DNA of 64,000 nt from Candidatus Woesebacteria bacterium (GCA_013374855.1 CP055308.1:532071-596070), one strand, 5' to 3'; numbered from the stretch's first letter, positions 29,653 to 53,388 are shown. Translations and numbers: made by a program. The notes: generated by a model from the sequence alone, not told the origin.

Positions 29653-29670
29653 GGGAGCCTCCTTTAAAGG
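29646..29670. repeat. REP-like 25-bp imperfect palindrome, copy 1 (cctttaagggagcctcctttaaagg), in inverted orientation relative to copies 2, 3 and 5
   Basis: Stem arms CCTTTAAGGGAG / CTCCTTTAAAGG. It sits in the 11-nt gap between the GT2 stop (29652) and the transposase 3' end, which lies on the other strand. Confidence 0.7.
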
Positions 29671-30362
29671 TCAATGGCAATTTTTTCTATTAGTTTTAAT
29701 GATATTGGCTCATTTTCTTCCCCTTCTACAAATTTTTGATAATTTTTGGTTTTTTTGAATTCTGGGGCTATAGATTTTTCAAAGAAGTTAAGTATAATTT
29801 CAGGTTTTAGCCAAATTGTCTTTCTTAATCTTAAATAATCGGCATAAGATGAGTACCAATTTATTAGATCTTTTGTTTTTTCTAATGGATTTTTGTGTAT
29901 GTATCTTGATAAGTGAAGGAGCTGCTCATCATTTTTTATTAGTACAGCTTTATAGTGTCCTTGGAATAATTTGCCCACCCTTTTGTATTTTTTGTTGAAG
30001 TACATAGAATATCTTGTTAATACCGAACGCATAAAGCTCTCCAGTAATCTTTTTTCGGACTGTCTTATTATAAGATGAAAATGATTTGGCATAAGACAGT
30101 AGGCAATTAGATCAACACGTTGATAATAATTTTTTGGCATTCTTGGAATACCTTTAAAGGAGGCTCCCTGCAAGATGAAGGTTTTTTCGATTTTTTCTGG
30201 GGGAGGTGGTTTGGTGAGTGATTCCTTTAGATATTTAAGAAACACTTTGTAATCTTGATCGTCTAAAAATATTTTTCTTTTTTCTACTCCTCTGTTATAT
30301 ACGTGGTAGTAGCTGTTTTCTACATATATCTTAATGGAATTTTTCTGTGGCATGGCCTTCAT
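29664..30362 (-). CDS. IS200/IS605-type Y1 (HuH) tyrosine transposase, REP-associated (RAYT-like)
   Basis: YHVYNRG ... CLMPNHFHLII (HuH) ... GKLFQGHYKAVLI ... SRYIHKNPLE (catalytic Tyr helix). It is about 230 aa and is flanked on both sides by REP-like palindromes. Confidence 0.75.
   Translation of the reverse strand: MKAMPQKNSIKIYVENSYYHVYNRGVEKRKIFLDDQDYKVFLKYLKESLTKPPPPEKIEKTFILQGASFKGIPRMPKNYYQRVDLIAYCLMPNHFHLIIRQSEKRLLESFMRSVLTRYSMYFNKKYKRVGKLFQGHYKAVLIKNDEQLLHLSRYIHKNPLEKTKDLINWYSSYADYLRLRKTIWLKPEIILNFFEKSIAPEFKKTKNYQKFVEGEENEPISLKLIEKIAIDL
30151..30174. repeat. REP-like palindrome, copy 2 (cctttaaaggaggctccctgcaag), located inside the transposase CDS, where it encodes LQGASFKGI
   Basis: Identical over about 30 nt, flanks included, to copy 3. 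Confidence 0.65.
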
Positions 30363-30371
30363 ATTATATTA

Positions 30372-30396
30372 CCTTTAAAGGAGGCTCCCTGCAAGG
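30372..30396. repeat. REP-like palindrome, copy 3 (cctttaaaggaggctccctgcaagg), immediately upstream of the transposase start
   Basis: It begins 10 nt beyond the transposase start codon, at 30362 on the minus strand. Confidence 0.7.
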
Positions 30397-30436
30397 TGGA
30401 ATTATGGTGGATTTATGATTATCATTAGTAAATACA

Positions 30437-31183
30437 ATGGATATTAAAGGAAAAAATGTTTTGATTCTTGGGGCAACAGGTGGTATTGGTAGGCATCTTG
30501 CTTTTGCCTTTGCCTCAAGGGGGGCAAACCTTTTGCTTTCAGGTAGGAGGAAGATGATACTTAGTGCTTTAGAAAGAGAATTAAAAAATTTATCTGTTTT
30601 GGTAAAGACATATTCGCTTGATGTTACAAGAGAAGCTGATTTTGTTTTTTTAACAAGGAAAATTAAAAAAGATTTTAAAAACATTGATGTCTTGATAAAT
30701 GCTTTTGGGGTGGGGGTTTATAAAAGTCTTGAGGAAACAAGTTTTGGTGATTTTAAGAAGTCATTAGATGTAAATTTGAGTGGGGTTTTTCTTTCGATAA
30801 AGTATTTCTTGCCATTTCTTAAAAAATCTCCAAAAGCTTATGTGATAAGTTTGGGTTCGGGCATGGGCAAAGTGGGGGTGGCTAAAAGGTTGGCATATTG
30901 TGCTAGCAAATTTGGTCTTCGAGGTTTGATGCTTTCTCTTGCTAAAGAGTATAAGGGCAAAAATATTAAGTTTTGTCTTTTTACTTTAGGTAGTGTGCTT
31001 ACTTCTTTCGGACCCCTTACTTTGGAAGAGAAAATTGAAAAACAAAAAGAAGGTAAAAATTATTTAGATCCTGTGCAATTGGCAAAGACAATTGTATCAA
31101 AAATAGAAAATGATACTTTGATTGAAGAAACTACTATTTATCCCAAGGATTATTATAAAGAAAGCAAGAAAGGAATAGTTTGA
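30437..31183 (+). CDS. Classical short-chain dehydrogenase/reductase (SDR) family oxidoreductase
   Basis: The N-terminus has LGATGGIGRHLA (TGxxxGxG). YCASKFGLRG is the YxxxK motif. It is about 248 aa. Confidence 0.7.
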   Translation: MDIKGKNVLILGATGGIGRHLAFAFASRGANLLLSGRRKMILSALERELKNLSVLVKTYSLDVTREADFVFLTRKIKKDFKNIDVLINAFGVGVYKSLEETSFGDFKKSLDVNLSGVFLSIKYFLPFLKKSPKAYVISLGSGMGKVGVAKRLAYCASKFGLRGLMLSLAKEYKGKNIKFCLFTLGSVLTSFGPLTLEEKIEKQKEGKNYLDPVQLAKTIVSKIENDTLIEETTIYPKDYYKESKKGIV

Positions 31184-32226
31184 TGAAAAAAATTGCCATA
31201 GATGCAGGCCCGCTGAAAACAGGCGATTCAGTTCGAGGAATTGGAGTTTATACAAGAGAGCTGATATATTATTTGCAAGAGATAATAAAAAAAGATAAAA
31301 ATTCTGTTGAAGTATCTCTTCTTGATTATTCTTTAGGTAATTTTGGAAAGATAGATTTTAAGAGGTATGATGTTGTTCATTTTACTCGTTTTAATCCATT
31401 TTTATTAAATGTACCTTTGGGATTGTTGGGAAATAAAAAAACTAAATTTGTTTTGACTATTTATGATGTTATCCCCTTAATTTATCCTGATCATTACCCG
31501 CCCGGCATAAGGGGTAGGATAAATTGGGAAATTAATAGATATTTGATTAAGAGAAAGATTGATTCCGTAATTACTATTTCTGAAACTTCAAAAAGTGATA
31601 TTTGTGATTTTATTGGGATACCTCCTGATAAGGTAAGTGCAATTTATTTAGCTCCCAGAAAGATTTTTAAAAAACTCGCGTTGGGTAGTTGGCAATCAGA
31701 AATTAGGGAAAAATTTAGTTTGCCCTCTCATTTTGTTCTTTATGTTGGTGATATTAATTACAATAAGAATATTCCTAATTTGGTTAAGGCTTGTAAAAAA
31801 GCTGGTTTGCATTTGGTTATAGCAGGAAAGCAAGCAAAGGAAATAGAAAATATGGATTTGAATCATCCAGAACTTGTTCATTTAAAAGAAGTTGATTGGT
31901 CGAGAGTTCTGCGACTTGGTTTTGTTCAAGATGAGGATCTGGTTAAAATTTACAATCTAGCAGATGTTTATGTACAACCATCTTTTTACGAGGGTTTTGG
32001 TCTGCCAGTTTTGGAAGCTCTAGCTTGTGGTACTCCAATAGCTTGCTCAAATACAAAGGCTTTAGTTGAGATTTTGGGAAATGGTGTATCTTATTTTGAC
32101 CCTTATGATGTAGATGATATGGTAAAGAAGATTTTATCTCCTTCAAAAAAGGTTGATTTACCAAGAAAATATTCTTGGCAGAAAACAGCGGAAGAAACAC
32201 TAAGAGTTTATCAAAGCCTGCTTTAG
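31180..32226 (+). CDS. GT4 glycosyltransferase
   Basis: VYVQPSFYEGFGLPVLEALACGTPIACSN. It has an ATGA overlap with the SDR gene. Confidence 0.7.
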   Translation: MMKKIAIDAGPLKTGDSVRGIGVYTRELIYYLQEIIKKDKNSVEVSLLDYSLGNFGKIDFKRYDVVHFTRFNPFLLNVPLGLLGNKKTKFVLTIYDVIPLIYPDHYPPGIRGRINWEINRYLIKRKIDSVITISETSKSDICDFIGIPPDKVSAIYLAPRKIFKKLALGSWQSEIREKFSLPSHFVLYVGDINYNKNIPNLVKACKKAGLHLVIAGKQAKEIENMDLNHPELVHLKEVDWSRVLRLGFVQDEDLVKIYNLADVYVQPSFYEGFGLPVLEALACGTPIACSNTKALVEILGNGVSYFDPYDVDDMVKKILSPSKKVDLPRKYSWQKTAEETLRVYQSLL

Positions 32227-32232
32227 TTTATT

Positions 32233-33522
32233 ATGAGGCTAAAGGATTTGACTTTCTTTAAAATCTTTTCTTGGTTTTTGTTATGGCGTATTTTTTTTAT
32301 TGCGTTTTTATCTGTTTTTTTCATACCCAAGTATGGCGCTACTTTTCCTTATGTAGAAAGAGTTTTGGAGATTACAAAATTGCCTAATTGGGTTTGGGGT
32401 TTTGGTGGTTTTGACGGAGTTCATTATTTGAGGATCGCTCAAGACGGTTATAAAGCAGCAGTTTATATACCTGCTTTTTTTCCTGTTTTCCCTCTAGTTA
32501 TTAGGTATTTTGCCTATCTTTTACCAAAAGATTATTCTCTAATTGATATTTATGTTGATCCTGCTTTTTTTTACGCAGGGATTTTTCTTTCTAATATTTT
32601 TTTCCTTATGGCTTTATTTCTTTTGTATAAACTTTTTATAATTGATTTTGATAAAAAAAACTCAAAACTTGCTCTTTTATTTTTGCTCTTATTTCCAACA
32701 TCTTTTTATTTTGGGTCTATTTATACAGAATCTTTGTTTTTGCTTTTAACTGTTATAACTTTCTATTTTGCAAGGAGAAGAAATTTTATTCTTGCGGGTG
32801 TTTTTGCTTCAATTGCCTCGGCTACTCGCTTTGCTGGCATATTTTTGTTTCCTGCCATTTTATTTGAATTATATTTGGCTATTAGGAATAAGGAAATTAA
32901 TCCTAGAAGTGTAAATTTTCTTTTTTCTCTTATTGGGGTACTAGTTTCTCCACTCGGATTGATTTTGTATATGTTTTACCTTTGGAGAGAGTTTTCTGAT
33001 CCTTTATATTTTATTTCAGCTCAACCTTATTTTGGAGCCCAAAGGTCTTCTAATATTATACTTTTACCTCAGGTTATCTATCGTTATATAAAGATATTTT
33101 TTGACATACCATTATTTTCATTACAGTTTTTTAATTCTTTTCTGGAGTTTGTTTTTTCTCTTGGTGCGATAACTTTAATTTTTCTGTATTTTAAAAAGAT
33201 TCGTTTTAGTTATTTTATATTTACTTTGTTTTCAATTATTACTCCCACTTTAACCGGTTCTTTTTCGTCTATGCCCAGATATGTTTTGCAAAGTTTTTTA
33301 ATTTTCCCTGTTTTAGTTCGCGCAATGGGGCGGTATAGAAGATTTTTTTTTTATAATTTCTGCTATTCTGGGAACAGTGCTTTTGACTCTTTTTATAAGG
33401 GGTTATTGGGTGGCGTAGAATTAAGAGAGCAGGAGAGTTGTAAGTTGGTTGTTGTTTGTTGTCTGTTCGCGCCAGCGGTAGTTGCTTTTACTTTTGTTTT
33501 GGTTATAAAATTACTCTTGTGA
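32233..33522 (+). CDS. Polytopic membrane protein, GPI-mannosyltransferase-2 (PIG-V, GT76)-like GT-C
   Basis: GFDGVHYLRIAQDGYK resembles the W/F-D..HYL.IA..GY signature of the Mannosyl_trans2 family. It is multi-TM. The C-terminal roughly 60 codons may be over-extension into the gmd start region. Confidence 0.4.
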   Translation: MRLKDLTFFKIFSWFLLWRIFFIAFLSVFFIPKYGATFPYVERVLEITKLPNWVWGFGGFDGVHYLRIAQDGYKAAVYIPAFFPVFPLVIRYFAYLLPKDYSLIDIYVDPAFFYAGIFLSNIFFLMALFLLYKLFIIDFDKKNSKLALLFLLLFPTSFYFGSIYTESLFLLLTVITFYFARRRNFILAGVFASIASATRFAGIFLFPAILFELYLAIRNKEINPRSVNFLFSLIGVLVSPLGLILYMFYLWREFSDPLYFISAQPYFGAQRSSNIILLPQVIYRYIKIFFDIPLFSLQFFNSFLEFVFSLGAITLIFLYFKKIRFSYFIFTLFSIITPTLTGSFSSMPRYVLQSFLIFPVLVRAMGRYRRFFFYNFCYSGNSAFDSFYKGLLGGVELREQESCKLVVVCCLFAPAVVAFTFVLVIKLLL

Positions 33523-34529
33523 AGAAAAAAAAGAAAGCGCTGATCACAGGAATTACAGGACAGGACGGTTCTTACTTGGCCGAATTTCTTCTTAAGAAGG
33601 GTTATGAGGTTTCCGGAATTGTCAGGAAAACTAGCCACTTTTATTATGCCAATATTGCCCATATTCAGCACGAACTTCATTTGATTCAGGCGGATTTGTT
33701 AGACCCAGTCTCCATAAGGGAGGTGATGCAAAAAGTTCAGCCTGATGAAATCTATAATCTTGCTTCCCAATCACATCCTGCAGAGTCTTTTCGCCAACCA
33801 ATTCACACAGCAGAAATAACAGGGATAGGTGCCCATCGTGTAATGGATGCCGCACTTGATGTTGTTCCTAATGCTAGGTTTTATCAGGCTTCCTCAAGTG
33901 AAATGTTTGGTTGGGTTAAAGAAATTCCTCAAAACGAAGAAACCGCTTTCAATCCTGCCAATCCGTATGCAGCAGCAAAGCTCTACGCACACAACATTGC
34001 AAAAATTTACAGAAGAAGCTATAAAATGTTTATTTCCTGCGGGATTCTTTTTAATCATGAGTCTCCTCGCAGAGGTTTGGGTTTTGTAACTCAAAAAGTA
34101 ACTTATGCCGCAGCTTGCGCTAAGCTTGGTATTAAAACAAGCCAACACTTGAATGAAGAAGGAGAGCCAATGGTAAGAAATGGTAAAGTAGCGCTTGGTA
34201 ATTTGGAGGCAAAAAGGGATTGGGGATTTGCTGGCGATTATGTTGAGAGTATGTGGCTTATGTTGCAACACAAAGAACCTGACGATTTTGTAGTCGGAAC
34301 AGGAGAAACTCATACAATAGCAGAGCTTTGCGAAGAAGCTTTTTCTTATGTTGGTCTTGATTGGAAGAAATATGTAGTAGTTGATCAGCGTTTTGTTAGA
34401 CCAACAGAAACAGGTCCTTTGGTTGCTGATTATTCAAAAGCAAAGAAAGTTCTGGGTTGGAAGCCAAAAACATCATTTAGTCGGCTTGTTAGGATGCTGG
34501 TTGATGCTCACATTGCAAGACTAAAGTAG
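33519..34529 (+). CDS. gmd: GDP-mannose 4,6-dehydratase
   Basis: KKALITGITGQDGSYLAEFLLKKGYEVSGIVRK...QPDEIYNLASQSHPAESFRQPIHTAEITGIGAHRVMDA is a strong match to the Gmd N-terminal Rossmann and active-site regions. There is a GTG start that overlaps the upstream stop (GTGA). Confidence 0.88.
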   Translation: MKKKKKALITGITGQDGSYLAEFLLKKGYEVSGIVRKTSHFYYANIAHIQHELHLIQADLLDPVSIREVMQKVQPDEIYNLASQSHPAESFRQPIHTAEITGIGAHRVMDAALDVVPNARFYQASSSEMFGWVKEIPQNEETAFNPANPYAAAKLYAHNIAKIYRRSYKMFISCGILFNHESPRRGLGFVTQKVTYAAACAKLGIKTSQHLNEEGEPMVRNGKVALGNLEAKRDWGFAGDYVESMWLMLQHKEPDDFVVGTGETHTIAELCEEAFSYVGLDWKKYVVVDQRFVRPTETGPLVADYSKAKKVLGWKPKTSFSRLVRMLVDAHIARLK

Positions 34530-34533
34530 CTTA

Positions 34534-35670
34534 ATGCTCGGAAAGAAAGATTTTTTATTTTTGTTTTTCTTTACTTTTGTTTTTATTGCTTTTTCTTGGT
34601 TTTTAAACCCTTCATTTTTTCAGAGTCGCTTTGATGAAAGATTGATTTCTGATTATCTGCGCAGTCAGGATATTGAGGACAGGGAAGATAAGATAAAAGA
34701 CAGACTTTTTATTTCAGACGATAAAATTTATTTTGCAAGTGGTGTTCTTTATGCAAGAGGGGAGCCGCCAACAAAATTTAATTTTCAGCATCCGCCACTT
34801 TTGAAATATCTTTTTGGCTGGTCAACTATCCTTTTTGGTTCACCTTTTCCTATTCAGATTTTTTTCTCTTTAGCTTTTATTTTTCTTGTTTATTTTTTGG
34901 CATTTCTTGTTTTTAAAAACAGGTTGGTTGCATTTTTGGCTGTTTGTTTTTTGTTTTTAGACCCCGTTTTTTGGGAAACATCGCATTTAACACTTCTTGA
35001 TGTGGGGCAGGTGGTTTTTGCTTTGGCATTTTTAATTTTGTTTTTCTTTTATCCCAAAAGGATATTTTTGCAAGGAGTTTTTCTTGGTTTTCTTTTTGCA
35101 TCTAAATTTTGGAGCGTCAGTTTTCTATATTTTGCGTTTCTTGTGTTTTACATAATTTGGTTTTTTAAGGATAAAAGTTTTGTCAAAAGTTTGCCGATTT
35201 TGATTTTTGTTTCATTTCTAGTTTTTTCTTCTTTTTATATTAATTATTTTTTAAGCGGAAATAGTCTTTTTGATTTCTTGTTTTTGCAAGCAAGAACGGT
35301 TAAGTTTATGTTGACGCATAACAATACTAATAATTTTGGTAATTTATTTTTGCTTTTTATAAGCGGTCATTATCTTTCTTGGTGGGATGGGGGAATTTGG
35401 GTTAAATCTCAATTTTGGAACCCAATTTGGCCTATTTCTTTTTTGGCAAGTATTTTTCTTGCCTTTAAACTTTCAAAAAATAAGAAAGCTTGGTTTATTT
35501 TTATTTTTCCTGCTTTTTATTTTTTGGTGAATTTAACAAACACTGCCTTTACCCGTTATATTCTTTTTGTCCTTCCATTCCTTTATATTTCCCTTGCGTA
35601 TGGAATTAGCTTGTTAGTTAATTCAAAAGTCGGTAAAAGAGCGGGAGAGTTGAAGAGTAGAAGTTGTTAG
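34534..35670 (+). CDS. Polytopic membrane protein, GT-C (PMT/ArnT)-like
   Basis: FNFQHPPLLKYLFGWSTILFG is the hPPL.KYL motif of GT39/83. It has about 9 TM segments. The 3' end carries the left copy of the 26-bp direct repeat. Confidence 0.45.
   Translation: MLGKKDFLFLFFFTFVFIAFSWFLNPSFFQSRFDERLISDYLRSQDIEDREDKIKDRLFISDDKIYFASGVLYARGEPPTKFNFQHPPLLKYLFGWSTILFGSPFPIQIFFSLAFIFLVYFLAFLVFKNRLVAFLAVCFLFLDPVFWETSHLTLLDVGQVVFALAFLILFFFYPKRIFLQGVFLGFLFASKFWSVSFLYFAFLVFYIIWFFKDKSFVKSLPILIFVSFLVFSSFYINYFLSGNSLFDFLFLQARTVKFMLTHNNTNNFGNLFLLFISGHYLSWWDGGIWVKSQFWNPIWPISFLASIFLAFKLSKNKKAWFIFIFPAFYFLVNLTNTAFTRYILFVLPFLYISLAYGISLLVNSKVGKRAGELKSRSC
35638..35663. repeat. 26-bp direct repeat, left copy (agagcgggagagttgaagagtagaag)
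   Basis: 24 of 26 nt match the copy at 36133..36158. The two copies bracket the coiled-coil gene. Confidence 0.6.
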
Positions 35671-35729
35671 TTATTTTTATAGAGATAGATCTAGTTGACC
35701 GGTTGTTATTGTCGTGTTTTAATAAATCT

Positions 35730-36098
35730 ATGCCCCAAAGTGCCAAGCAAGATTATATAACTAAAGAATTTTTCAAAAAAACTATAGAGGAGATGACCGA
35801 TACAATAATTCGTGGGATGGATGGTATTCACTCGGATTTGGTTGCCAGGATTGATAACTTAGAAAAAAGAGTTTCCAGACTAGAGGATAAACTTTATCAG
35901 GTAGAGATTAGATTATCTAATTTAGAAAATGAGTTATCCGAACTTAAAATTAAAGTGGCTAGTTTAGATGTCAGGCTGGCTGATATAGAGAAGAGGATTA
36001 AAGCTTTGGATAGAAAGTTGGATTTGCAGAGGAAACGGTTAAAAGAACAGGTAACTCGCATTGATAGATTAGAGGCACTTCAATCTCATCCGGCTTAA
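35730..36098 (+). CDS. Hypothetical coiled-coil protein
   Basis: Heptad-rich LEKRVSRLEDKLYQVEIRLSNLENELSELKIKVASLDVRLADIEKRIKALDRKLDLQRKRLKEQ. I set the start at the internal ATG (MPQSAKQ). The ORF as given starts at 35664. Confidence 0.4.
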   Translation: MPQSAKQDYITKEFFKKTIEEMTDTIIRGMDGIHSDLVARIDNLEKRVSRLEDKLYQVEIRLSNLENELSELKIKVASLDVRLADIEKRIKALDRKLDLQRKRLKEQVTRIDRLEALQSHPA

Positions 36099-36132
36099 AA
36101 CCCAACGCTTTAGAGAAGAATCACTGGAGGTT

Positions 36133-36158
36133 AGAGCAAGAGAGTTGAAGAGTAGAAG
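36133..36158. repeat. 26-bp direct repeat, right copy (agagcaagagagttgaagagtagaag)
   Basis: Matches the copy at 35638..35663. Confidence 0.6.
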
Positions 36159-36359
36159 GGGGAAGAAAGTATTGTGTATTTTGTGTTATGTATATAGATT
36201 CAGTAATAAAATTCCAAATTCCAAATCACAAATCACAATTCATTATCCACTATTCACAAATTCCGTCTTGTTAATTGTTAATAGTTAATTGTTATCTAAA
36301 TTTATTTTTAGCATCTATGTCCTGAAACGAGTTAGACTGACAAGGATGGACATTGTCAG

Positions 36360-36647
36360 TTATTTGAAGCTAACGACTAATTTTGATCCGAGAGCTTTTG
36401 CAATTTTGTTGATCTGATTAATAGAGGGATTTGCGTTCATTGTTTCAATATTTGAGATGATGGCTTGAGAAGTTTTTGCTTTTTTTGCTAGTTCTCTTTG
36501 TGACATTTTTTTCGCTAATCTTTTTTGGATGATAGCTTTAGCCAATAGGTATTTTGGTTCTTCTTTTTCCCAAGCCTTTCTAAAACCTTCGTCTTTGATG
36601 GCTTCGTTGAAATATTGATCAAATGTGTAAATTTTATTTCTTGCCAT
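36360..36647 (-). CDS. XRE-family helix-turn-helix transcriptional regulator (HigA/antitoxin-like), apparently orphan
   Basis: MSQRELAKKAKTSQAIISNIETMNANPSINQINKIAKALG is a canonical HTH_XRE. It is 95 aa. Confidence 0.7.
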   Translation of the reverse strand: MARNKIYTFDQYFNEAIKDEGFRKAWEKEEPKYLLAKAIIQKRLAKKMSQRELAKKAKTSQAIISNIETMNANPSINQINKIAKALGSKLVVSFK

Positions 36648-36684
36648 ACTGGTTTTTCAAATCTCTAAATTGATACTTTATATA

Positions 36685-36722
36685 GTATAATAATAAACGG
36701 TTTGACTTTTTTGTCAAGCCGT
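36685..36722 (-). promoter_or_regulatory. Putative sigma70-type promoter (-35 TTGACA, then N17-19, then ATTATT/TATTAT) overlapped by the palindrome ACGGTTTGAC-T6-GTCAAGCCGT, a candidate operator for the XRE regulator
   Basis: On the minus strand the sequence reads acggcTTGACAaaaaagtcaaaccgtttATTATTATactata. This lies about 40-75 nt upstream of the ATG at 36647. The palindrome has 10-bp arms with 1 mismatch. Confidence 0.35.
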
Positions 36723-36787
36723 ATCTTTTTCCCACATCTTGAGGCGACTTAAGGCAATTTTTATTTCTTTGTGGGGTTTTGTTTTTA

Positions 36788-36812
36788 CCTTTAAGGGAGC
36801 CTCCTTTAAAGG
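36788..36812. repeat. REP-like palindrome, copy 4 (cctttaagggagcctcctttaaagg). It has the same orientation as copy 1 and is intergenic, upstream of the GT2 gene at 36849
   Basis: Identical 25-mer to copy 1. Confidence 0.7.
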
Positions 36813-36848
36813 TAGTGGTTTTGCGACTGATTAGTTTATAATAGCTTT

Positions 36849-37619
36849 ATGAAATCTTTTCCTAAGATCTCGATAGTTATTCCGTCTTTTAACAAGGTTG
36901 AGTTTGTGGAGGAAACTCTAAGGTCTATTGTTGTTCAAAGATACCCCAACCTTGAGGTTATAATCCAAGATGGTGGTTCTACTGACGGAACTTTGGAGAT
37001 ATTAAAAAGGTATGCTAAAAAATACCCTAAAATTTTTAAGCTGGAAAGTAAAAAAGATAAAGGCCAATTGGATGCGATAAACAAAGGTCTTTCAAAGGCA
37101 AGTGGGGAAATAGTTTCTTTTATAAATGCAGATGATGTTTATGAAAAAGGTGCATTGAAAAAAGTAGCAGAAGCGTATCTTAAAAATCCTGATAGGCTTT
37201 GGTTTGCTGGAAAAGGAAGGGTAATAGATAAAAAAGGAAAAGAAATTGCCAAAATTGCCACTTGGTATAAGAGCTTTCTTTTATCTTTAAATAAAAAATA
37301 TTTAATTCTTGTTCTTAATTATTTGATGCAACCTTCTGTTTTTTTGACAAAGAAGGCTTACCAAAAGTATGGGCCATTTACCGGCACAAAGACTGCGGTT
37401 ATGGAGTATGACCTTTGGTTAAAACTTTTCCAAGTGCAAAAGCCTGTTGTTATACCTTTTTTTCTTTCTTCCTTTCGCCTTTATCCGGGCTCTATCTCGA
37501 CTTCTAAAATAAAGGAAATGATGAAAGAAGATGAAAAAATTGTTAAAAAATACACAAGAAATCCTTTAATAATTTTATTTCACAGAATTCACAATTTAGC
37601 AAGGTCTATTTGGGCTTGA
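36849..37619 (+). CDS. GT2 glycosyltransferase
   Basis: ISIVIPSFNKVEFVEETLRSIVVQRYPNLEVIIQDGGSTDGT...INADDV. Confidence 0.7.
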   Translation: MKSFPKISIVIPSFNKVEFVEETLRSIVVQRYPNLEVIIQDGGSTDGTLEILKRYAKKYPKIFKLESKKDKGQLDAINKGLSKASGEIVSFINADDVYEKGALKKVAEAYLKNPDRLWFAGKGRVIDKKGKEIAKIATWYKSFLLSLNKKYLILVLNYLMQPSVFLTKKAYQKYGPFTGTKTAVMEYDLWLKLFQVQKPVVIPFFLSSFRLYPGSISTSKIKEMMKEDEKIVKKYTRNPLIILFHRIHNLARSIWA

Positions 37620-38725: not shown

Positions 38726-38735
38726 ATTAGAAAAT

Positions 38736-40085: not shown

Positions 40086-40257
40086 TGTAGCTTATTAATC
40101 AACTTAGAGCTAGCTGGTTTTATTTTCAATTACCAACTTGATAAAATATGGCTCGATACTTTTTTATTTTTTCACAGTGTATGCACAATATTTTTTGGTC
40201 TTATGTTATTTTAATGTTGTTAGATTTTGCAGTTTGAACAATCTATTCTTATATAAG

Positions 40258-41355
40258 ATGAAAATACTTTATGATTATCAGATTTTTAGTTTTCAAGAGT
40301 ATGGGGGTATCTCTAGGTATTTTTATGAATTGATCAAAGGAATGGAGAAATTAGGCAACGAAGTTTTTATTGATGGAAGGTTTTCTAATAATATTTTTTT
40401 GCCCAAATTAAAAGGTGGGGTTAAAAAATTTTTGCCTGATTATAAATTGCCATATAAAAATATTTTGTTATTTTATCTTAATAGATTTTTGGACGGTGAG
40501 AGATTGAAGAAAGGGAATTTTGATATTTTTCATCCTACTTATTATCATCCTTATTTTCTTCCGTTGCTAAAAGGCAGACCTTATGTGGTTACTGTTTTTG
40601 ATATGACTCATGAATTGTTTCCTGATAAATGTGGTGGTTTTATAAAGAAAACCTTAGAGTATAAGAGAAAGGTTGTTTTGGGAGCTAATAAGATTATTGC
40701 AATATCTGAAAGTACAAAAAATGATTTAATTAGATTATATGGTTTATCTAAAAGTAAGATAGAAGTCATATATTTGGGTAATCCATTGGAAGGAGTAAGA
40801 CCTTTAAAGGTTCCATCTCTGCCAGCGAATTACATTCTTTATGTTGGTAATCGCTCCGGTTATAAAAACTTTTTGTTTTTTGTGGAATCTATATCGACCA
40901 TTCTTATTAGAGAGAAAGATCTTTTTCTTGTGTGTGCCGGGGGTGGTGATTTTTCTAGCCAAGAGAGTAAATTGTTTTCTAAGTTGGGAATTCTTGGGAA
41001 AGTAAAACAAGTAAGTTTTAAAAGTGACAGAGAATTGGCTTATATTTACAAAAAAGCCAAAGTTTATGTACTTCCTTCACTATACGAAGGTTTTGGTCTA
41101 ACTGTTTTAGAGGCTTTTTCTATGGGCTGTCCTGTTATTGCAAGTAACAGAAGTTCTATACCTGAAGTTTGTGGAAAGGCTGCTGTCTATGTAAATCCAG
41201 AGGATAGAGAATCTATAAAAATAGCTGTTGAAAAAGTTTTGTCGGATGAAGATGTTAGAAATCATATAGTTTACTTAGGTTTTTTAACATTAAAGAGATT
41301 TTCTTGGGCCAAAACTGTTACAGAAACGTTGAATGTTTATAAATCTCTATGTTAG
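40258..41355 (+). CDS. GT4 glycosyltransferase
   Basis: VYVLPSLYEGFGLTVLEAFSMGCPVIASNRSSIPEV. I set the start at the internal ATG (MKILYDYQIF). The ORF as given begins at 40138. Confidence 0.7.
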   Translation: MKILYDYQIFSFQEYGGISRYFYELIKGMEKLGNEVFIDGRFSNNIFLPKLKGGVKKFLPDYKLPYKNILLFYLNRFLDGERLKKGNFDIFHPTYYHPYFLPLLKGRPYVVTVFDMTHELFPDKCGGFIKKTLEYKRKVVLGANKIIAISESTKNDLIRLYGLSKSKIEVIYLGNPLEGVRPLKVPSLPANYILYVGNRSGYKNFLFFVESISTILIREKDLFLVCAGGGDFSSQESKLFSKLGILGKVKQVSFKSDRELAYIYKKAKVYVLPSLYEGFGLTVLEAFSMGCPVIASNRSSIPEVCGKAAVYVNPEDRESIKIAVEKVLSDEDVRNHIVYLGFLTLKRFSWAKTVTETLNVYKSLC

Positions 41356-41370
41356 TCTTGATTTGAAATA

Positions 41371-42501: not shown

Positions 42502-42502
42502 T

Positions 42503-43642: not shown

Positions 43643-43873
43643 TCTAGTTTGTTTGGCTCGATCTCTTAAACTGCCATTTTTTGACAGTATGTTGAAATGT
43701 ACCTGGATTGCTTATTCTATAAATGGGGGAGGTGTTTAAAATTTTTTTTATATCTTATCTTCTGTAGTATAATTTTCTCTAATGTATCTTTCATTTTCTG
43801 ATGCTAATAAGTTTGCTCTTGACGGCGTATAAAGTTTTGGTGGGGTAATGGTTCATTTGACAAAATATGATTT

Positions 43874-45369: not shown

Positions 45370-45380
45370 TTTTATAGATT

Positions 45381-46940: not shown

Positions 46941-47507
46941 ATAGTTTTTTAGAAGCTGGCTGTTAAATGAATAATCATTTTTTGCTTTTTGTTAAAACCT
47001 TCTTTGCTGCTGAAATAAATGATTGTTTGGCGTGACCGACCTCATACAATAAGGTAAAAGTTGCGGGTATATAAAACATCTAATCTCGCATATGCCTTTT
47101 TCTTTTTTGTAGGAACAATATGTTTCTTCATTTTCATCTAGTTTTATTATTTTTATCTTGCTTATAATATTTTTGTTTTTGGGGTCTATTTTCTTCTAGA
47201 AAAAGTTTGTTATTTCTTATGCTTCTTCAATAAAGTTTTTGGTGATATTTTTGGGTATGCCGGTTTTTTGGCTTATTTGTTCTATGAAGTTTTTGTATCC
47301 TTTTTGTTTTGACTCTTGGTTTAGAAGCTTTGTAAGCTTGGTGAAGTGTCTTTCAGCTTCTTTCAATAATTTTATGTGTTTGCCAAAGCTTGTGACCTTT
47401 TCTTTGTAAGAAACCTTGGAGATTGGTATTTTTCTTATTTTAGGTGGGGTAATAATTTTTTAATCTTTTTGTATTCTTTTTTTCCACTTAATTATTTTTT
47501 AAAGAAG

Positions 47508-47933
47508 TCATTTTATTTTAGTTTGTAATTTAAAAACTTTTTTTCTAGTTTCCATTTTTGTTTGGGTCTTTGAGTAATCTAGCACTTCTTCTAGGAATTG
47601 CTTAAAAAATGGTGAATCTGGATGTCTTACATAAAAACCAAGTTCTGCTGCTGATTCGATGGCAGAGAAAAGTGTCTTTTCCTCTTCAATTAGTTTTCTC
47701 ACTTTTACCATAAAGTTAAAAAGCTTTTCTGAAATTGAAGAAAGTTCGTCAATTGAAATTTTTCCTTTTTCAAAATCTTTTATTGTCATAAGAAAAATTT
47801 TTTTTATCTGGTCTGTATTAATTTCTTTTTTTTCACTTTCAATTCCAGCTTTCTTTTTGTATTCCTCGAATTTTTTATAAGGGAAGGGGATTGTAATAAT
47901 TTTATTTATTTTCTTGGTTTTTAGACTTTTCAT
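47508..47933 (-). CDS. Hypothetical protein, paralog of 57259..57618
   Basis: Shared blocks are ISIDELSSISEKLFNF...GFYVRHPDSPFFKQFLEEVLDY in this copy and YSIDDLSAVCMKLFDI...SFYIRKPDLLPQFTKLLEEFFDI in the other. Confidence 0.45.
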   Translation of the reverse strand: MKSLKTKKINKIITIPFPYKKFEEYKKKAGIESEKKEINTDQIKKIFLMTIKDFEKGKISIDELSSISEKLFNFMVKVRKLIEEEKTLFSAIESAAELGFYVRHPDSPFFKQFLEEVLDYSKTQTKMETRKKVFKLQTKIK

Positions 47934-48115
47934 ATTGTATTTTTCTGATTACTGTCTAATTATAAAATAAACAAAGGGGTTGTTGAAGTTGCTTAAAAAA
48001 GTTTGGAAGGATAATCAGATATAGTTAGAAGATTAAATTAATTCTATCCTTGTGGTTCTGAGGATTTTTGTAATTTTGTTTGCTATTTAGTTTTTTAAAT
48101 TTATAAAATGATATT

Positions 48116-49417
48116 GTGAAGATTTTTAAGGTGCTTTTCTATTTGCCCACCTTTTCTATTGTTTTGGTTGGTTTTTATCTTATTGTTTCAACGTCGCTTT
48201 ATGTTCGTTATTGGGTTGATGATTTTTGTTCTGCTGCTTTTTTAAAAGATAATGGTTTTTGGGGCGCTCAACTTGGTTGGTGGAAAAGTTGGACAGGTAG
48301 GTATTCAGCTGTATTTTTTACTAGTCTATTTGAGCTTGTTGGTCCATGGGTAGTAAGGTTTTTGCCTATTTTTTTGTTTTTATTGTTGGTTTTTACATCT
48401 TATCTTATTCTTAAAAATTTTTTGATATCTGCTTTGTTTGTTATTTTAGTCTTTATTAATTCACCAAACATTATTCAATCTTTTTATTGGCAAACAGGAT
48501 TATTGAATTACACAGCAGAGTTTGTATTTCTTAATATTTTTCTAGTTTTTTTGCTTTTTAAGAAAAGAGCCAGCCTTATTTTTCCTTTTTTATTTACTTT
48601 TATTGCCGGCGGTTTTTCTGAGGCTTTTGCTCTTGGGTCAATTCCATTTTTTTTGTGTCTGGGAGTTGCCTTGCATTTTTTTTATAGAGAAAAAAGAGAT
48701 AAAAAATTAAAAGTTTGGATTGCAGGTCTATTGGGTATTTTGTTCTCGCTTTTTCTTATGAGCCTTTCTCCCGGTAATGCAACAAGATCTGAATTTGTTA
48801 CAAGACCTGAGAGTTTTTCCTTTGTCGCAAGGTCTACTTTTTTGGCGACTAGGTGGTACTTATTAAGAATGTTTTCTATTAACACTTTTGTTTATTCTTT
48901 GTTTGTTGCTTTTCTGACTATATTTTTATTTTTTAGAGAGGTTAAGTTGAATTTAAGAGATGGGTTTCTTTTTTCTTTTATTTTTTTTATAGGGGGGATT
49001 TTTTCTGTGATGCTTGTAATATTTTCTGGTTTTTATTCTATGTCGATATTACCACCTGAGAGAACTTTATTTTTAGCGGTGTGTTTGTTTTTTTATTGTT
49101 TTTTTATTGCTTCATTTTTTGTTGTAGGAGTTGTTAATAAATATCTGGTCAGTAAACTTAATAATATTGTTAATATAGCATTTATTTTAAATATGTTTTT
49201 TTCTGTAATTTTATTTTTTAATTTCTACCCTCATTGGATAAATGTTAGAAAAGAAGTTAAAGATTATGCAATTGCTTGGGATGTTGAGGTAAGAAATTTA
49301 CCTGAAGTAAAAAATGTAAAACCAGTTGGGGGTCTTGATAGCTTTACTGATAATAAAGGTTGGGTTTCTTCATGTATTGCAAGATATTATGGTTTTGAGG
49401 AAATTATTGTGAAGTAA
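48116..49417 (+). CDS. Polytopic membrane protein (uncharacterized)
   Basis: It has about 12 TM helices, a GTG start and a short soluble C-terminus. Confidence 0.4.
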   Translation: MKIFKVLFYLPTFSIVLVGFYLIVSTSLYVRYWVDDFCSAAFLKDNGFWGAQLGWWKSWTGRYSAVFFTSLFELVGPWVVRFLPIFLFLLLVFTSYLILKNFLISALFVILVFINSPNIIQSFYWQTGLLNYTAEFVFLNIFLVFLLFKKRASLIFPFLFTFIAGGFSEAFALGSIPFFLCLGVALHFFYREKRDKKLKVWIAGLLGILFSLFLMSLSPGNATRSEFVTRPESFSFVARSTFLATRWYLLRMFSINTFVYSLFVAFLTIFLFFREVKLNLRDGFLFSFIFFIGGIFSVMLVIFSGFYSMSILPPERTLFLAVCLFFYCFFIASFFVVGVVNKYLVSKLNNIVNIAFILNMFFSVILFFNFYPHWINVRKEVKDYAIAWDVEVRNLPEVKNVKPVGGLDSFTDNKGWVSSCIARYYGFEEIIVK

Positions 49418-49548
49418 TTTTTTTATCCTTTTTTAGATAGATTTTTTCTTATTTTTGCAAGATCTTATTTTGTCTTATGGATTTCTCCAATGGTTGCATT
49501 TTTTTTATAATTACTTGCCTTTTGTAATTTTTATTTGATTTAAGGTTT

Positions 49549-49800
49549 CTAGTAATCTTTTCTGTTGCTTTTGCGGTTGGATTCTCTCCAGAGTTGGACA
49601 GAGTAGCACTCGTTAACATTTGAGCATTTGCCTCCTTGGACTGGACACTCTTTTGATTTTCTGCCATTTACTCGTTGTCCGCAATCTCTTCTATAAATTT
49701 GATTCCAAGCCTCTGTTTCGGTGTCTGGTTCTACATTAATTCCTATTTCTTCCATTAATCTGCGCGCCGCTTCGTCAAGTGATGTTTTTCTTTCTCCCAT
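49549..49800 (-). CDS. Small hypothetical Cys-containing protein (83 aa)
   Basis: The ORF sits in a locally GC-richer segment. Cys residues fall at about 40/52/59/65. It is an alternative to the overlapping ORF 49449..49667. Confidence 0.25.
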   Translation of the reverse strand: MGERKTSLDEAARRLMEEIGINVEPDTETEAWNQIYRRDCGQRVNGRKSKECPVQGGKCSNVNECYSVQLWRESNRKSNRKDY

Positions 49801-49898
49801 ATTGGGTCATATTTTATAATTTTTGAGTTTAATAATCAAATTTTTGAATGAGAATTAAGAGTAGATAAATAATCTGTAATCTTTGCTAAAATAAGACA

Positions 49899-51176
49899 GT
49901 GAAAAAATATATAGATAAAGCAAAGACGCTTGCTTTTTCGTCTACTGCCAAAGACACCTACTTTCTTTTTGTGGGTAATATTGTCTCTGCCATTTTTCAT
50001 TTTTTGTTTATTTGGTTTATTGCCCGCGCGCTTTCTGTTCCTGAATTTGGAATTTTTTCTGCTGTTTCCAATTTGGTTTATATTATCTCTCCTTTGGTGG
50101 ATCTTGGAATATCGGGGGGATTAATTGAGTTTGCTTCTTATTTTAGATCAAGAGGAGAAGAAGAAAAAGCAAAAGAGTTTGTGAAAGCTGCCTTTATTGC
50201 TCGTTTTTTGTTTCTTCTTTTGGCTTGTGTAATCTTGGTAATGATTTCTCCTTTTTGGGGAGAAAAGCTTTTTGCTTCTTCTGATTTTTATCTTTCTTTA
50301 TGGACTGTGATTATTCTTCTTGGAATTTTCTGGAGTTATTTTTTTTCTTCAACGCTTCAGGCGTATCGAAGATTTATAGCTTCATCTGTTGTTGATAACG
50401 CTTATGCGGCAGGAAGGGTGATCTTTGTAATTTTTCTTTCTATTGGCGGGCTTACGCTTTATAAGGCTTTGGGTGCTTTTGCTTTAGCAGGTATCGTTGC
50501 TTTTTTTGCTGCCCTTTTTACTTTTGGCTTTTCTTTTCTGAAGACAAAACCTTCTTTTTCGGTCTATAAGAAACTTATTTCTTTTTCCGGCTGGCTTGGG
50601 GTAAACAGAGTTCTTTCTTCAGTTTCAGGAAGAGCTGATATTCAGATGCTTGCTGCTCTTGCTGGGGCAACTGTCACTGGGTATTATTCTGTTGCCTCGC
50701 GGCTTTCCTTTTTTATAGTGGTTTTGACTTCAAGCTTTGCTTCTGTAATTTCCCCACGGCTTGCTTCTATGGGAGACAGGGAAAAAGAAAAAGTTTTTAT
50801 TAGAAAATCTCTTTTGGCGGTATTGGGGGTTAGCCTTGGAATTATAGTTTGGGTTTTATTGGCGCGGCCTTTTATACTTTTTCTTTTTGGAGAAAAATAT
50901 AAAGACTCTATTGTTGTTTTCCAGTGGCTTGCTTTGTCTATGATTCCTTTTGTTTTTACTGCTCCTTCTGTTTCTGCTGTTGTTTATGCTTTAAAAAAAC
51001 CTAAGGTTATTGGAGTTTTTTCTTTTGTTCAGACCGCGCTTATTTTTATTCTAAATTACCTGCTTATTCCGAAAATTGGTCCATTTGGGCCTGTTGTAAC
51101 TTATGCTATAACAAATACTGCTCTTGCTTTGTGGACTTGGTGGATTGTCTTAAAATTTTATTGGGGAAAACACTAA
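49899..51176 (+). CDS. Wzx-like flippase / polysaccharide biosynthesis protein (MOP superfamily)
   Basis: It has about 12 TM helices. The N-terminus TAKDTYFLFVGNIVSAIFHFLFIWFIARALSVPEFGIFSAV is typical of Polysacc_synt. Confidence 0.6.
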   Translation: MKKYIDKAKTLAFSSTAKDTYFLFVGNIVSAIFHFLFIWFIARALSVPEFGIFSAVSNLVYIISPLVDLGISGGLIEFASYFRSRGEEEKAKEFVKAAFIARFLFLLLACVILVMISPFWGEKLFASSDFYLSLWTVIILLGIFWSYFFSSTLQAYRRFIASSVVDNAYAAGRVIFVIFLSIGGLTLYKALGAFALAGIVAFFAALFTFGFSFLKTKPSFSVYKKLISFSGWLGVNRVLSSVSGRADIQMLAALAGATVTGYYSVASRLSFFIVVLTSSFASVISPRLASMGDREKEKVFIRKSLLAVLGVSLGIIVWVLLARPFILFLFGEKYKDSIVVFQWLALSMIPFVFTAPSVSAVVYALKKPKVIGVFSFVQTALIFILNYLLIPKIGPFGPVVTYAITNTALALWTWWIVLKFYWGKH

Positions 51177-51186
51177 GGCAATAGAT

Positions 51187-52026
51187 ATGAAAGTTTTTGC
51201 TCACAGTTTGGTTTGCAATGAAGAGCGATGGCTTTGGTTTTCTGTCTCCTCAGTTGTTGATTATGTTGACAAAGTTTTGCTTTGGGATACTGGAAGCACA
51301 GACAATAGCTTAAAAATTGAAAGAGAACTTAAAAAAAGATGGCCTGATAAGATTGATTTAAGGCAATATGGCAAAGTTGATGCTTTTTCTTTTACTAAAG
51401 CAAGGCAGGAAATGCTTGAAATTTCAGATTGCGATTGGGTAATGATTTTAGATGGAGATGAGGTTTGGTGGGAGGATAGGCTTAAGCGCGCGCGGCAGAT
51501 TATAGAAAAAGAAGGCAAAAAACTTGACTCAATGGTTCATCGGTATTACAACTTGGTTGGCGACATCTACCATTATCAGGAAGAGGAGGCTGGCAGGTAT
51601 AGAATCGATGATCAAGTTGGACATTTAACTATTAGATTTTTTAATCGAAAAATTGATGGCTTGCATTTTGAGAAAGAGCATGGAGTGCAGGGTATTTTTG
51701 ATGGGAATGGTGTTTTAATTCAGGAAAGAGATAGAAAGAAAAGGTTTCACACGGGCGATTATTATTTGCACTTTACTCATTTAGTGCGCTCAAGCACTAG
51801 GCAGGATGATTTAAAAGTAGTAAAGCGAGCTTTAAAGTATAAGTATGAGCTAGGCATAAGATTTCCTTCTGATTTTGTCTACCCGGAAGTTTTTTATAAA
51901 AGCTATCCTTCGTTTATCGAAAATCCTTGGCAAAAAAGAAGTTTGGGTTATGTGGCGCGGGCATTGATTGAGACGCCATTGAGGAAAATTAAGCGCAGGC
52001 TTTGGTGGGGAAAGGTTGGGTATTAA
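51187..52026 (+). CDS. Putative glycosyltransferase (GT2-like, with a WaaE-type NEE motif)
   Basis: VFAHSLVCNEERWLWFSVSSVVDYVDKVLLWDTGSTDNS...ILDGDEV. It is a divergent GT2. Confidence 0.45.
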   Translation: MKVFAHSLVCNEERWLWFSVSSVVDYVDKVLLWDTGSTDNSLKIERELKKRWPDKIDLRQYGKVDAFSFTKARQEMLEISDCDWVMILDGDEVWWEDRLKRARQIIEKEGKKLDSMVHRYYNLVGDIYHYQEEEAGRYRIDDQVGHLTIRFFNRKIDGLHFEKEHGVQGIFDGNGVLIQERDRKKRFHTGDYYLHFTHLVRSSTRQDDLKVVKRALKYKYELGIRFPSDFVYPEVFYKSYPSFIENPWQKRSLGYVARALIETPLRKIKRRLWWGKVGY

Positions 52027-52035
52027 TAGGGTCGT

Positions 52036-53388
52036 ATGGAGGAAAAACATATTTTCAGAAATGTTTATTTTTTGTTTGCTTTTTATTTGGTTTTTTGTTT
52101 GTTTTTTCTTGGTCTTATTAGATTCACTGCTTGGCCGGAAATGCTTGCTTGGCCTTATCTTATTTTGAAAGGTTGGTTGCCTTACCGTGATATAGCAATA
52201 GCCCATAATCCATTACTTTTGCTTGATGTTTCTTTGTTTTACAAAATCTTTGGTGTTGGAGTTGTCCAGCTTAAATTTTTTACTTGGCTTCTTTTTTCTC
52301 TTGCTGCTCTTATTCTTTTTTGGGTGGTAAAAGATTTGTGGGGGAAAAGAGTTGCCTTTTTCTCTGTTGTTTTTTATTTTCCTCTTTTTGTTTTTTATGA
52401 AGGGAATGGTCTTTGGTTTGATTTTTATATGGGTATTTTTGCTTTTGCCTCTTTTTACTTTGCACAGAAGAAGGAATTTTTTTGGGCAGGTGTTTTTTGG
52501 GGTCTTTCTTTTTTGGCAAAACAGACCGCTTTTTGGTTTCTTTTACCTCTTGTATTGATGCTTTTACCTTTAAAGGAGGCTCCCCTAAAGGTAGGGAAGG
52601 TTATGCTAGGAATGGCTTTGGTCTTAGGGTTATTTTTCATTGGGCTTTTTTATTTTGGAATTTTTTCTGATTGGTGGAATTGGGCTTTTAAGTTTGGGGT
52701 TTTGACCTTGCCTCGACTTTCAGGACAAATTCAGCTTCCAACATTAAGACAATTTTTAATTTCTCTTTTACCATTTTCTATTTTTGTTTATCTTATTTTA
52801 AATTACAAATATAGATTCACAAATCTTTTTTTGTGGGCTGTCGCTGGTTTGATGGGAGTTTTTCCAAGGTTTGAGTTTTTCCATTTTCAACCGGCGCTTT
52901 TTTATCTTTCGATAGCTTTGGCTTTGGTTTTTTCGAAGAAACTACCAGTAAAAAATTATAAATTTATGCTTTTTTATTTGTCTTTTTTGGCGCTTGTTTT
53001 TGGGAGATTTTTATTTTCCAGTTTTAAACAAGAAACTCGTTTTTATGAAAAAAGTGTACAAGAGGTACAAAATGAAGTTTCAAAGATTGTTGCACCAGGA
53101 GAGAAAATTTATATTGTTTCCTATTGGGATAGTCTTTATGCTTTAACTGATACTCTTCCTGCAACAAAGCCACTTGTGCCTTTTATTCCTTGGTATTTAA
53201 AACTTAATGGAGTTGAAGAGAAAATATTGAAAAGTCTAGAAGAAGAAAAACCAAAAGTTATGGTTGCTTACTATCCATCTATTAAAACAGGTCTGATACA
53301 CAGGTCTGATTTGATTGAAGAATTTATAGATAAAAATTATTATGAAGAAGAGTGGTTTGGGGAAGTTTTTGTTTTTGTAAGAAAATGA
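52036..53388 (+). CDS. Polytopic membrane protein, GT-C-like, carrying an in-frame REP-like insertion
   Basis: It has about 11 TM segments. REP copy 5 encodes LKEAPLKVG in a loop at residues 178-186. Confidence 0.45.
   Translation: MEEKHIFRNVYFLFAFYLVFCLFFLGLIRFTAWPEMLAWPYLILKGWLPYRDIAIAHNPLLLLDVSLFYKIFGVGVVQLKFFTWLLFSLAALILFWVVKDLWGKRVAFFSVVFYFPLFVFYEGNGLWFDFYMGIFAFASFYFAQKKEFFWAGVFWGLSFLAKQTAFWFLLPLVLMLLPLKEAPLKVGKVMLGMALVLGLFFIGLFYFGIFSDWWNWAFKFGVLTLPRLSGQIQLPTLRQFLISLLPFSIFVYLILNYKYRFTNLFLWAVAGLMGVFPRFEFFHFQPALFYLSIALALVFSKKLPVKNYKFMLFYLSFLALVFGRFLFSSFKQETRFYEKSVQEVQNEVSKIVAPGEKIYIVSYWDSLYALTDTLPATKPLVPFIPWYLKLNGVEEKILKSLEEEKPKVMVAYYPSIKTGLIHRSDLIEEFIDKNYYEEEWFGEVFVFVRK
52567..52591. repeat. 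REP-like palindrome, copy 5 (cctttaaaggaggctcccctaaagg), in frame inside CDS 52036..53388
   Basis: It is the same 25-mer family as copies 1-4. Confidence 0.65.

Follow-up and report, generated by a model that had tools for sequence, protein, structure and literature searches.

The window analysed here, a 64,000-nt stretch of DNA from Candidatus Woesebacteria bacterium (GCA_013374855.1 CP055308.1:532071-596070), contains an imperfect palindrome of 29 nt (consensus TACCTTTAAAGGAGGCTCCCTTAAAGGTA) in five copies. Two of the copies are read in frame as part of a protein, one within the gene of a Y1/HUH transposase that resembles the REP-associated tyrosine transposases (RAYTs; REP, repetitive extragenic palindrome) and the other within the gene of a membrane glycosyltransferase. 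We consider it likely that the RAYT-like enzyme has this palindrome as its cognate REP-type hairpin, an old element that has been spread, or tolerated, in frame and whose copies evolve in concert. The features on which the argument turns are the following, with positions counted from the first nucleotide of the window.

Copy 1, 29644..29672, no strand assigned: hairpin that flanks the 3' end of the transposase gene; its loop has the opposite orientation to those of copies 2 and 3.
Copy 2, 30149..30176, minus strand: presumed cognate hairpin, read in frame as residues 63-72 (ILQGASFKGI) of the transposase.
Copy 3, 30370..30397, minus strand: flanking hairpin on the upstream side of the transposase gene; like copy 2, it has the TGCAAG variant, and the two share their orientation.
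Copy 4, 36786..36814, no strand assigned: solo, intergenic copy, the best palindrome among the five.
Copy 5, 52565..52593, plus strand: solo copy, read in frame as LPLKEAPLKVG in a short loop of a PMT_2/GT-C protein.
Transposase gene, 29664..30362, minus strand: RAYT-like Y1/HUH tyrosine transposase of 232 aa, recognized by Pfam Y1_Tnp, fold match and motifs.
GT2 gene, 28792..29652, plus strand: its final codons and stop lie inside copy 1; syntenic neighbour of the transposase gene in relatives.
PMT_2 gene, 52036..53388, plus strand: membrane glycosyltransferase of the GT-C type and host of copy 5 (Pfam PMT_2, 27.4 bits; cutoff 26.1).

The copies were found with the pattern CCTTTAAAGGAGGCTCCC, allowing at most 3 mismatches over its 18-nt core, across the whole 64-kb window. 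Five matches compare with 0.04 expected by chance, and this count was reached in none of 100 shuffles. A preliminary description of this DNA had already proposed a REP-like family of five members, with copies 2 and 5 leaving the reading frames of their host genes unbroken, and both points hold. The ORFs at 29573, 52455 and 52482, which it had regarded as translation artefacts, overlap real genes in other frames and are indeed artefacts. A sixth full palindrome is not present in the window; beyond the five copies there is only a single isolated half site at 40799-40812. This 12-nt half site (ACCTTTAAAGGT) encodes PLKV within the ORF 40138..41355; 0.28 matches are expected for the 10-mer, and it is probably due to chance rather than a hairpin relic.

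Copies 2 and 3 are identical across 25 nt and 82% alike across 45 nt. Copy 3 lies 8 nt 5' of the annotated ATG of the transposase gene and 17 nt 5' of Met4 (30353), which is probably the true start, judging from homologs that begin with MPxKNS. Folded as single-stranded DNA, copy 1 reaches -6.7 kcal/mol (z -3.1) and copy 4 -8.5 kcal/mol (z -3.3).

The transposase, encoded by one gene copy in the window, scores 38.6 bits against Pfam Y1_Tnp (cutoff 23). Its alignment with homologs displays the motifs YHVYNRG (residues 19-25), NHFH (the HuH motif, 93-96) and RYIHKNP (153-159), together with LFQG and a YSSYA tail; the family consensus of the tyrosine motif is YIHLNP. A sequence-profile search of the PDB with the homolog alignment gave no match at E values up to 0.01, so a fold search was needed to tie the protein to a known structure. 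The AlphaFold model, built from a 24-sequence homolog alignment (pLDDT 79.5), has as its top Foldseek match in the PDB the entry 4ER8, the E. coli RAYT bound to its REP hairpin (E 1.3e-6, TM-score 0.62 normalised to the target), and the next matches are the TnpA structures of IS608 and ISDra2. The protein is a RAYT-like Y1/HUH enzyme of domesticated appearance. The peptide encoded by copy 2 sits between YHVYNRG and NHFH, where the model predicts a coil of lower confidence, preceded by a helix (35-49) and followed by a strand (83-91). Together with the flanking inverted copies 3 and 1, the gene makes up a REPtron-like unit within a surface-glycan gene cluster.

The relation between palindrome and enzyme becomes clear when homologous genes are compared. 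For comparison we used 160 loci that carry homologous genes, taken from the matches listed for genome and metagenome collections; few close relatives were among the metagenome matches listed. In 141 of these genes we could compare 20-mers from the 80-nt flanks with the gene's own body, using a cross-locus permutation as control. A flank 20-mer matched the body of its own gene at 18 or more of 20 positions in 71 of the 141 genes (at 20 of 20 in 48), as opposed to 2 of 423 cross-locus pairings. The upstream hairpin was the same as the downstream hairpin in 113 of 142 genes. At loci L001-L004, the hairpin that encodes the protein motif matches the copies found immediately before that gene's ATG and at its stop codon; the stem centre is GGAG-C-CTCC in the window, while GGCC-A-GGCC, GGTG-T-CACC and GGTT-C-AACC also occur across these four loci. 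Between clades the hairpins are unrelated, as illustrated by CCTGCAGGGCCAGGCCCTGCAGG (L120), CCGTGCAAGGTCGGACCTTGCACGG (L088) and TGACAGGGTCTCGCCCTGTCA (L106). Accordingly, other clades encode quite different peptides at the same place of the transposase, each of which matches its own flanking hairpins. Enzyme family and hairpin family belong together, and the copies within one genome are kept alike.

Intragenic copies occupy two places in the transposase gene. There are 32 between the NRG and HUH motifs, including copy 2 of the window, and 40 after the Y motif, while none of the 72 lies between HuH and Y; some genes hold both sites. The first place is the hypervariable linker that leads from the first helix to the HuH strand and the second is the linker that follows YxxxNP (NP, hairpin, YPYSSY). 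The second site is seen in L009, L014, L086, L093, L117, L119, L137, L144, L145 and about 30 more loci, and some genes have four hairpins, one upstream, two intragenic and one downstream. Solo copies are also found at the related loci, 9 of 17 of them inside long ORFs. We also noticed solo hairpin pairs that resemble REP doublets (REPINs), at L014:10910-10966 (inverted, 33 nt apart) and L064:14297-14480 (158 nt apart). Locus L064 carries two different Y1 genes, each with a hairpin family of its own.

The pairing of the stem is maintained by compensatory change, even where this alters the protein sequence. For this analysis we used 34 non-identical sites, which were anchored on the protein motif instead of on the fold, and a stem of 11 bp. 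Paired bases filled 80% of the cells, compared with 62.5% in shuffles and 28-54% when the partners were slid by one to three columns. Cells in which both sides had changed numbered 72, as against 30 +/- 4 in shuffles, and none of 500 shuffles reached 72. The clearest view is given by the third base of the Gly66 codon and the first base of codon 68, which form the pairs AU (13), UA (12), CG (3) and GC (2). Since these two positions pair, a synonymous base decides between Ser, Thr, Ala and Pro at residue 68, and in 100 of 102 close homologs this residue is indeed S, T, P or A, all encoded by NCN. G-U pairs were not preferred over A-C mismatches at the intragenic site and the loop orientation varies, so nothing points specifically to an RNA structure in the sense strand.

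The in-frame copy of the transposase gene is old. A protein search scored 7,886 relatives at E values up to 0.001, and we inspected the best 120 of them, which are 57-87% identical to the window protein and mostly 224-231 aa long (full range 207-263 aa). These best 120 have the segment xLQGxxFKG at the same place. In an alignment of the window protein with 23 homologs, all 24 sequences read xTLQGxxFKG(I/V)PR; G66, F69 and G71 do not vary at all, and L64 hardly varies. The gene order GT2-transposase-SDR is retained in L162, where the three proteins are 80%, 69% and 62% identical to those of the window, and in L081. The synteny with L162 points to vertical inheritance of the transposase gene, as has been described for domesticated RAYTs (PMC5581495). 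Because the segment is common to the homologs and the synteny with L162 holds across flanking proteins of 62-80% identity, a recent insertion into the transposase gene or a recent chimera is ruled out. The preliminary description had taken copy 2 for an insertion, to be recognized by an indel among orthologs, and had suggested that the transposase ORF was either a recent chimera or the victim of self-targeting. There is no such indel, and all close homologs examined share the length and the motif, which refutes the chimera. What survives of self-targeting is that the gene contains the repeat cognate to its own product; as a recent event it has to be given up in favour of an ancient, family-wide and co-evolving hairpin. 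An assembly artefact is unlikely as a source of the copies, since the same three-hairpin layout recurs across dozens of independent assemblies.

A similar picture emerged for the glycosyltransferase. Its copy 5 peptide, LPLKEAPLKVG, sits between two hydrophobic segments. An ortholog with 88% identity (P0121) has the same loop peptide, and orthologs with about 50% identity read LPLKVRPLKG, PPLKGNPLKV, AALKVQPLKG or STFKGETLQG in this loop. At the DNA level, hairpins with differing stem centres occupy the same loop in L161 and L163-L166. The REP of L161 equals the REP of the RAYT-like gene on the same contig (L162); the match between glycosyltransferase and RAYT hairpins of one genome thus covers the window and L161/L162, while the case of L163 rests on a second solo copy. 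That copy has the same centre and lies in frame in the neighbouring GT4 gene (L163:6242-6266, FTFKGEPFKGG), in a variable linker that is no longer than in orthologs. With a strict pattern, 20 of 113 examinable orthologs have such a loop peptide; by eye, the proportion is about a quarter to a third, in either orientation. The loop peptides can be mapped onto variants of the RAYT motif (PLKEAP onto GAS, PLKGNP onto GLP, PLKGDP onto GSP).

An indel of 8-10 aa among glycosyltransferase orthologs had likewise been expected. The closest orthologs, at 88% and about 50% identity, carry the hairpin too and do not display one, but another subgroup does show a clean insertion of about 13 aa, NILRRPLKxxxCK, which corresponds exactly to the repeat peptide, in P0129, P0178 and P0237 as compared with P0137, P0140, P0143, P0151, P0174 and P0219 (53-63% identity). 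The glycosyltransferase loop is therefore a permissive host site that has been used repeatedly. Either copy 5 itself is older than the split from the orthologs of 50% identity, or this position has received a renewed copy.

These observations suggest a mechanism, for which E. coli TnpA_REP and IS608 TnpA serve as analogies. The enzyme would bind the hairpin in single-stranded DNA and would cut and rejoin the strand beside it, which would seed new hairpin copies at a low rate and keep old ones alike. We infer binding, cleavage and mobility, as well as the cause of the concerted evolution; the latter could be that all copies must stay substrates of one enzyme, or that the enzyme overwrites them. 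The core of the element, CCTTTAAAGG, reads F-K-G, P-L-K or L-stop in its three frames, and in either orientation two of the three are free of stops. This is why copies could survive as short peptides where they land in permissive surface loops. Such loops would be the linker between helix and HUH motif and the linker after YxxxNP in the transposase, in addition to the loop of the PMT_2 glycosyltransferase. Copies at gene ends may supply stop codons. The window uses all three frames, FKG/LQG in the transposase, PLK in the glycosyltransferase and the stop frame in the two genes that end in copy 1. These convergent ORFs are separated by 11 nt, and both obtain their stop codons from this copy: the GT2 gene the TAA at 29650-29652, and the transposase gene the TTA at 29664-29666, which is TAA on the minus strand. 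A tentative and rather doubtful extension is that the intragenic hairpins serve the enzyme as functional cis sites, for instance in autoregulation or as master copies for rewriting the hairpins of the genome.

Several observations weigh against a REP/RAYT relationship of this kind. The TGCAAG variant of copies 2 and 3 makes weak DNA hairpins (-1.6 and -3.1 kcal/mol, z about 0), and the two halves of the element, CCTTTAAAGG and CCTTGCAAGG, are each palindromic by themselves, which would also suit a double-stranded binding site. The foot of the hairpin is TACC...GGTA in the window, differs at other loci, and contains no GTAG. Copy numbers are low: the window has 2 solo copies in 64 kb and the related loci have 17 in 496 kb (about 1 per 29 kb), far below classical REP families. 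The loop orientation of the flanking copies relative to the intragenic copy differs among loci. The transposase reaches 48.7 bits against NCBIfam REP_Tyr_transpos, which is under the cutoff of 80, and shares just 14% identity with 4ER8, from whose homology binding and cleavage are deduced. Finally, the window glycosyltransferase shows no net gain in length over orthologs that lack the REP.

We weighed four other explanations, of which the first three, a protein motif, an operator and an RNA element, are all weaker than the cognate-hairpin interpretation. It is conceivable that xLQGxxFKG has a function as a peptide in this clade of enzymes, that the palindrome is a by-product of it and that the flanking copies are remnants of partial gene duplications. 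The invariance of three residues and the near invariance of a fourth in the 23 homologs, as well as the retention of frame and position, would be expected from such a peptide. But the variable positions co-vary so as to preserve base pairs, including pairs of a synonymous glycine base with a base that changes an amino acid, and residue 68 is confined to amino acids with NCN codons. The different peptides of other clades each match their own flanking hairpins, the same DNA also occurs solo, both intergenically and, in a different frame, within other genes, and the segment is predicted to be a coil. We therefore regard a protein motif as improbable.

About equally improbable is a double-stranded operator, in which a dimeric regulator, perhaps one that controls the glycan cluster, would recognize two palindromic half sites of 10 bp (CCTTNNAAGG) spaced by about 15 bp, and the element would not serve as an HUH substrate. 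Both half sites are self-complementary, and the poor hairpins of copies 2 and 3 fit this idea. So do the positions of copies 3 and 4 in divergent promoter regions: copy 3 is 40 nt upstream of a divergent SDR gene, and copy 4 lies between a GT2 gene (36849..37619, plus strand) and an adjoining gene of the Xre-type helix-turn-helix (HTH) class (36360..36647, minus strand). An operator does not explain, however, that the centre between the half sites also stays complementary (GGAG/CTCC, GGCC/GGCC, GGTG/CACC, GGTT/AACC), or that other clades have no such half sites but one continuous stem only. In addition, what constantly accompanies the element, at 113 of 142 loci, is a Y1 gene rather than an HTH gene, and many copies lie within genes or at their 3' ends.

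The palindrome might instead act at the RNA level, as terminator, mRNA stabiliser or translational attenuator, with the link to the transposase being secondary. REPs elsewhere do function as RNA elements (PMC3733652), copy 1 is found where two genes converge, and the probable ribosome-binding region of the transposase gene falls within copy 3. Yet no T run follows the hairpin, copies occur in the middle of coding sequences, their orientation relative to transcription varies, and G-U pairs are no more favoured than A-C mismatches. In a scan for promoters and terminators, no terminator was called at any of the five copies and promoter-like sites did not exceed those in shuffles. A search of Rfam with positions 29300-30700 (E up to 1) returned two chance miRNA matches far under the threshold and nothing else. 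There is thus little likelihood of such an RNA element, again to a similar degree.

A most improbable alternative is that a mobile REP recently inserted itself into both genes, or that the transposase ORF was recently joined from two pieces at a REP: the near-identity of copies 2 and 3 and the true insertion in one subgroup of glycosyltransferase orthologs would agree with it, but the segment occupies identical codon positions in all close homologs, which are of equal length, its position and frame are constant within clades though the hairpin sequence changes, the transposase gene is syntenic in diverged genomes, and the glycosyltransferase copy is shared with the orthologs at both levels of identity.

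The surroundings of these genes can be described briefly. The whole window consists of a surface-glycan cluster, in which PMT_2/GT-C, GT2 and GT4 genes are numerous and a flippase gene and a DUF6056 gene are also present. Three tandem paralogous ORFs for large membrane proteins (832, 565 and 558 aa) extend over positions 13626-19433 and have repeat families in common, about 1650 nt apart. At the far end of the cluster there is an AbiEii toxin-like gene (58697-59311, plus strand), and the AbiEii/DUF6922 pair is syntenic in L161 and L166. Among the glycan-cluster genes of relatives we noticed small genes for 23S_rRNA_IVP/bAvd-like four-helix bundles (L161:7537-7902, L162:4135-4470, L163:3155-3541 and L166:8689-9078).

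Among known systems, the closest likeness is to the REPtron, i.e. RAYT/TnpA_REP with its hairpins (E. coli yafM, 4ER8; Nunvar 2010, Bertels and Rainey 2011, Ton-Hoang 2012). As there, a Y1 HUH enzyme with YxxxNP is encoded by a gene between cognate hairpins, whose loops are inverted in the window, and further copies, dispersed but rare, occur in the window and at the related loci. Hairpin families are specific to a genome and even to a gene copy, and the gene is syntenic in relatives and single in the window. Unlike REPtrons, the hairpin of the window lacks a GTAG/CGTC foot and has short, AT-rich stems, a 3-nt loop and a very low copy number. The sequence similarity, as judged from 4ER8 and NCBIfam, is low, the host belongs to the Patescibacteria (candidate phyla radiation, CPR), and in-frame copies in the enzyme's own gene are the rule and not the exception.

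In-frame REPs within tnpA_REP genes have been described as a unique feature of TnpA_Y1 subclass 2.4, where they lie between HuH and Y (Quentin 2018, PMC6006769). Our genes resemble this subclass in that cognate REPs are present inside the transposase gene, with intact frame and in a variable, peripheral region of the protein. They differ from it in their motifs (FQ and YIHxNP, not WQ and YIxNNP) and in their insertion sites before HuH or after Y. By its motifs, as compared with Table 1 of PMC6006769, the window protein (NHFH, LFQG, RYIHKNP, YSSYA, 232 aa) is rather like subclass 2.1, equivalent to Bertels group 1 or TIRYT (NH[YF]H, FQ, Y[IV]HLNP, SS tail, about 238 aa). This subclass was reported to be without REPs (Quentin 2018, PMC6006769); instead of REP-like hairpins it has long terminal inverted repeats with GGGGWSAS, whereas here short cognate hairpins flank and enter the gene. 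In the window and at the related loci, the gene ends showed no GGGGWSAS repeats.

The fold, the hairpins just outside the gene ends and the unit size of about 0.75 kb are also reminiscent of IS200/IS605 elements such as IS608 and ISDra2. Those elements, however, have YxxxQ, a core of about 150 aa and multiple near-identical copies, while our protein has YxxxNP and 232 aa including a C-terminal tail. We saw no multiple identical copies; the location is syntenic, and some hairpins stand alone.

A further comparison is with the Rickettsia palindromic elements (RPEs), the work on which reportedly includes that of Ogata et al. in 2000. Like RPEs and the REPs of Di Nocera, the copies described here are short palindromes that stand in frame, typically in loops, in genes that are probably still functional. 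RPEs are longer (100-150 bp) and have no known cognate enzyme, and the cases of Di Nocera are scattered, while here the same glycosyltransferase loop is hit in many diverged genomes, each time with the genome's own variant. Di Nocera 2013 (PMC3733652) reported both REPs that lie in frame in unrelated genes and REPs whose ends provide neighbouring genes with stop codons; the Rickettsia RPE work is cited there as well (refs 13-14). The statement that in-frame REPs are rarely documented, made in the preliminary description, was too strong in view of these cases and of those in tnpA_REP genes (PMC6006769).

This kind of arrangement is already known. New are the lineage, the insertion sites, the dual-coding covariation and the co-evolution of intragenic, flanking and solo copies. 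A literature search found no paper that describes REPs or RAYTs in CPR bacteria, and the partnership of REP and RAYT is extended here to the candidate phyla radiation and to a branch of TnpA_Y1 that had been reported as REP-less. For the annotation of CPR genomes, hairpin-encoded peptides have practical consequences, as they inflate the apparent conservation of motifs and create spurious small ORFs.

The finding also means that one stretch of DNA is under two constraints, as a hairpin and as a protein loop, to the extent that the third base of a glycine codon dictates the residue two positions further on. If the intragenic hairpins were indeed cis sites, the DNA target of the enzyme would be a stretch of the codons of its own protein and the two would be forced to evolve together. 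In that case a Y1 HUH enzyme would overwrite hairpins in a site-specific manner and so keep the copies identical, an undescribed form of enzyme-driven concerted evolution. Since fixed, orthologous in-frame copies track the genome-specific hairpin, they make the homogenisation of a REP family directly testable.

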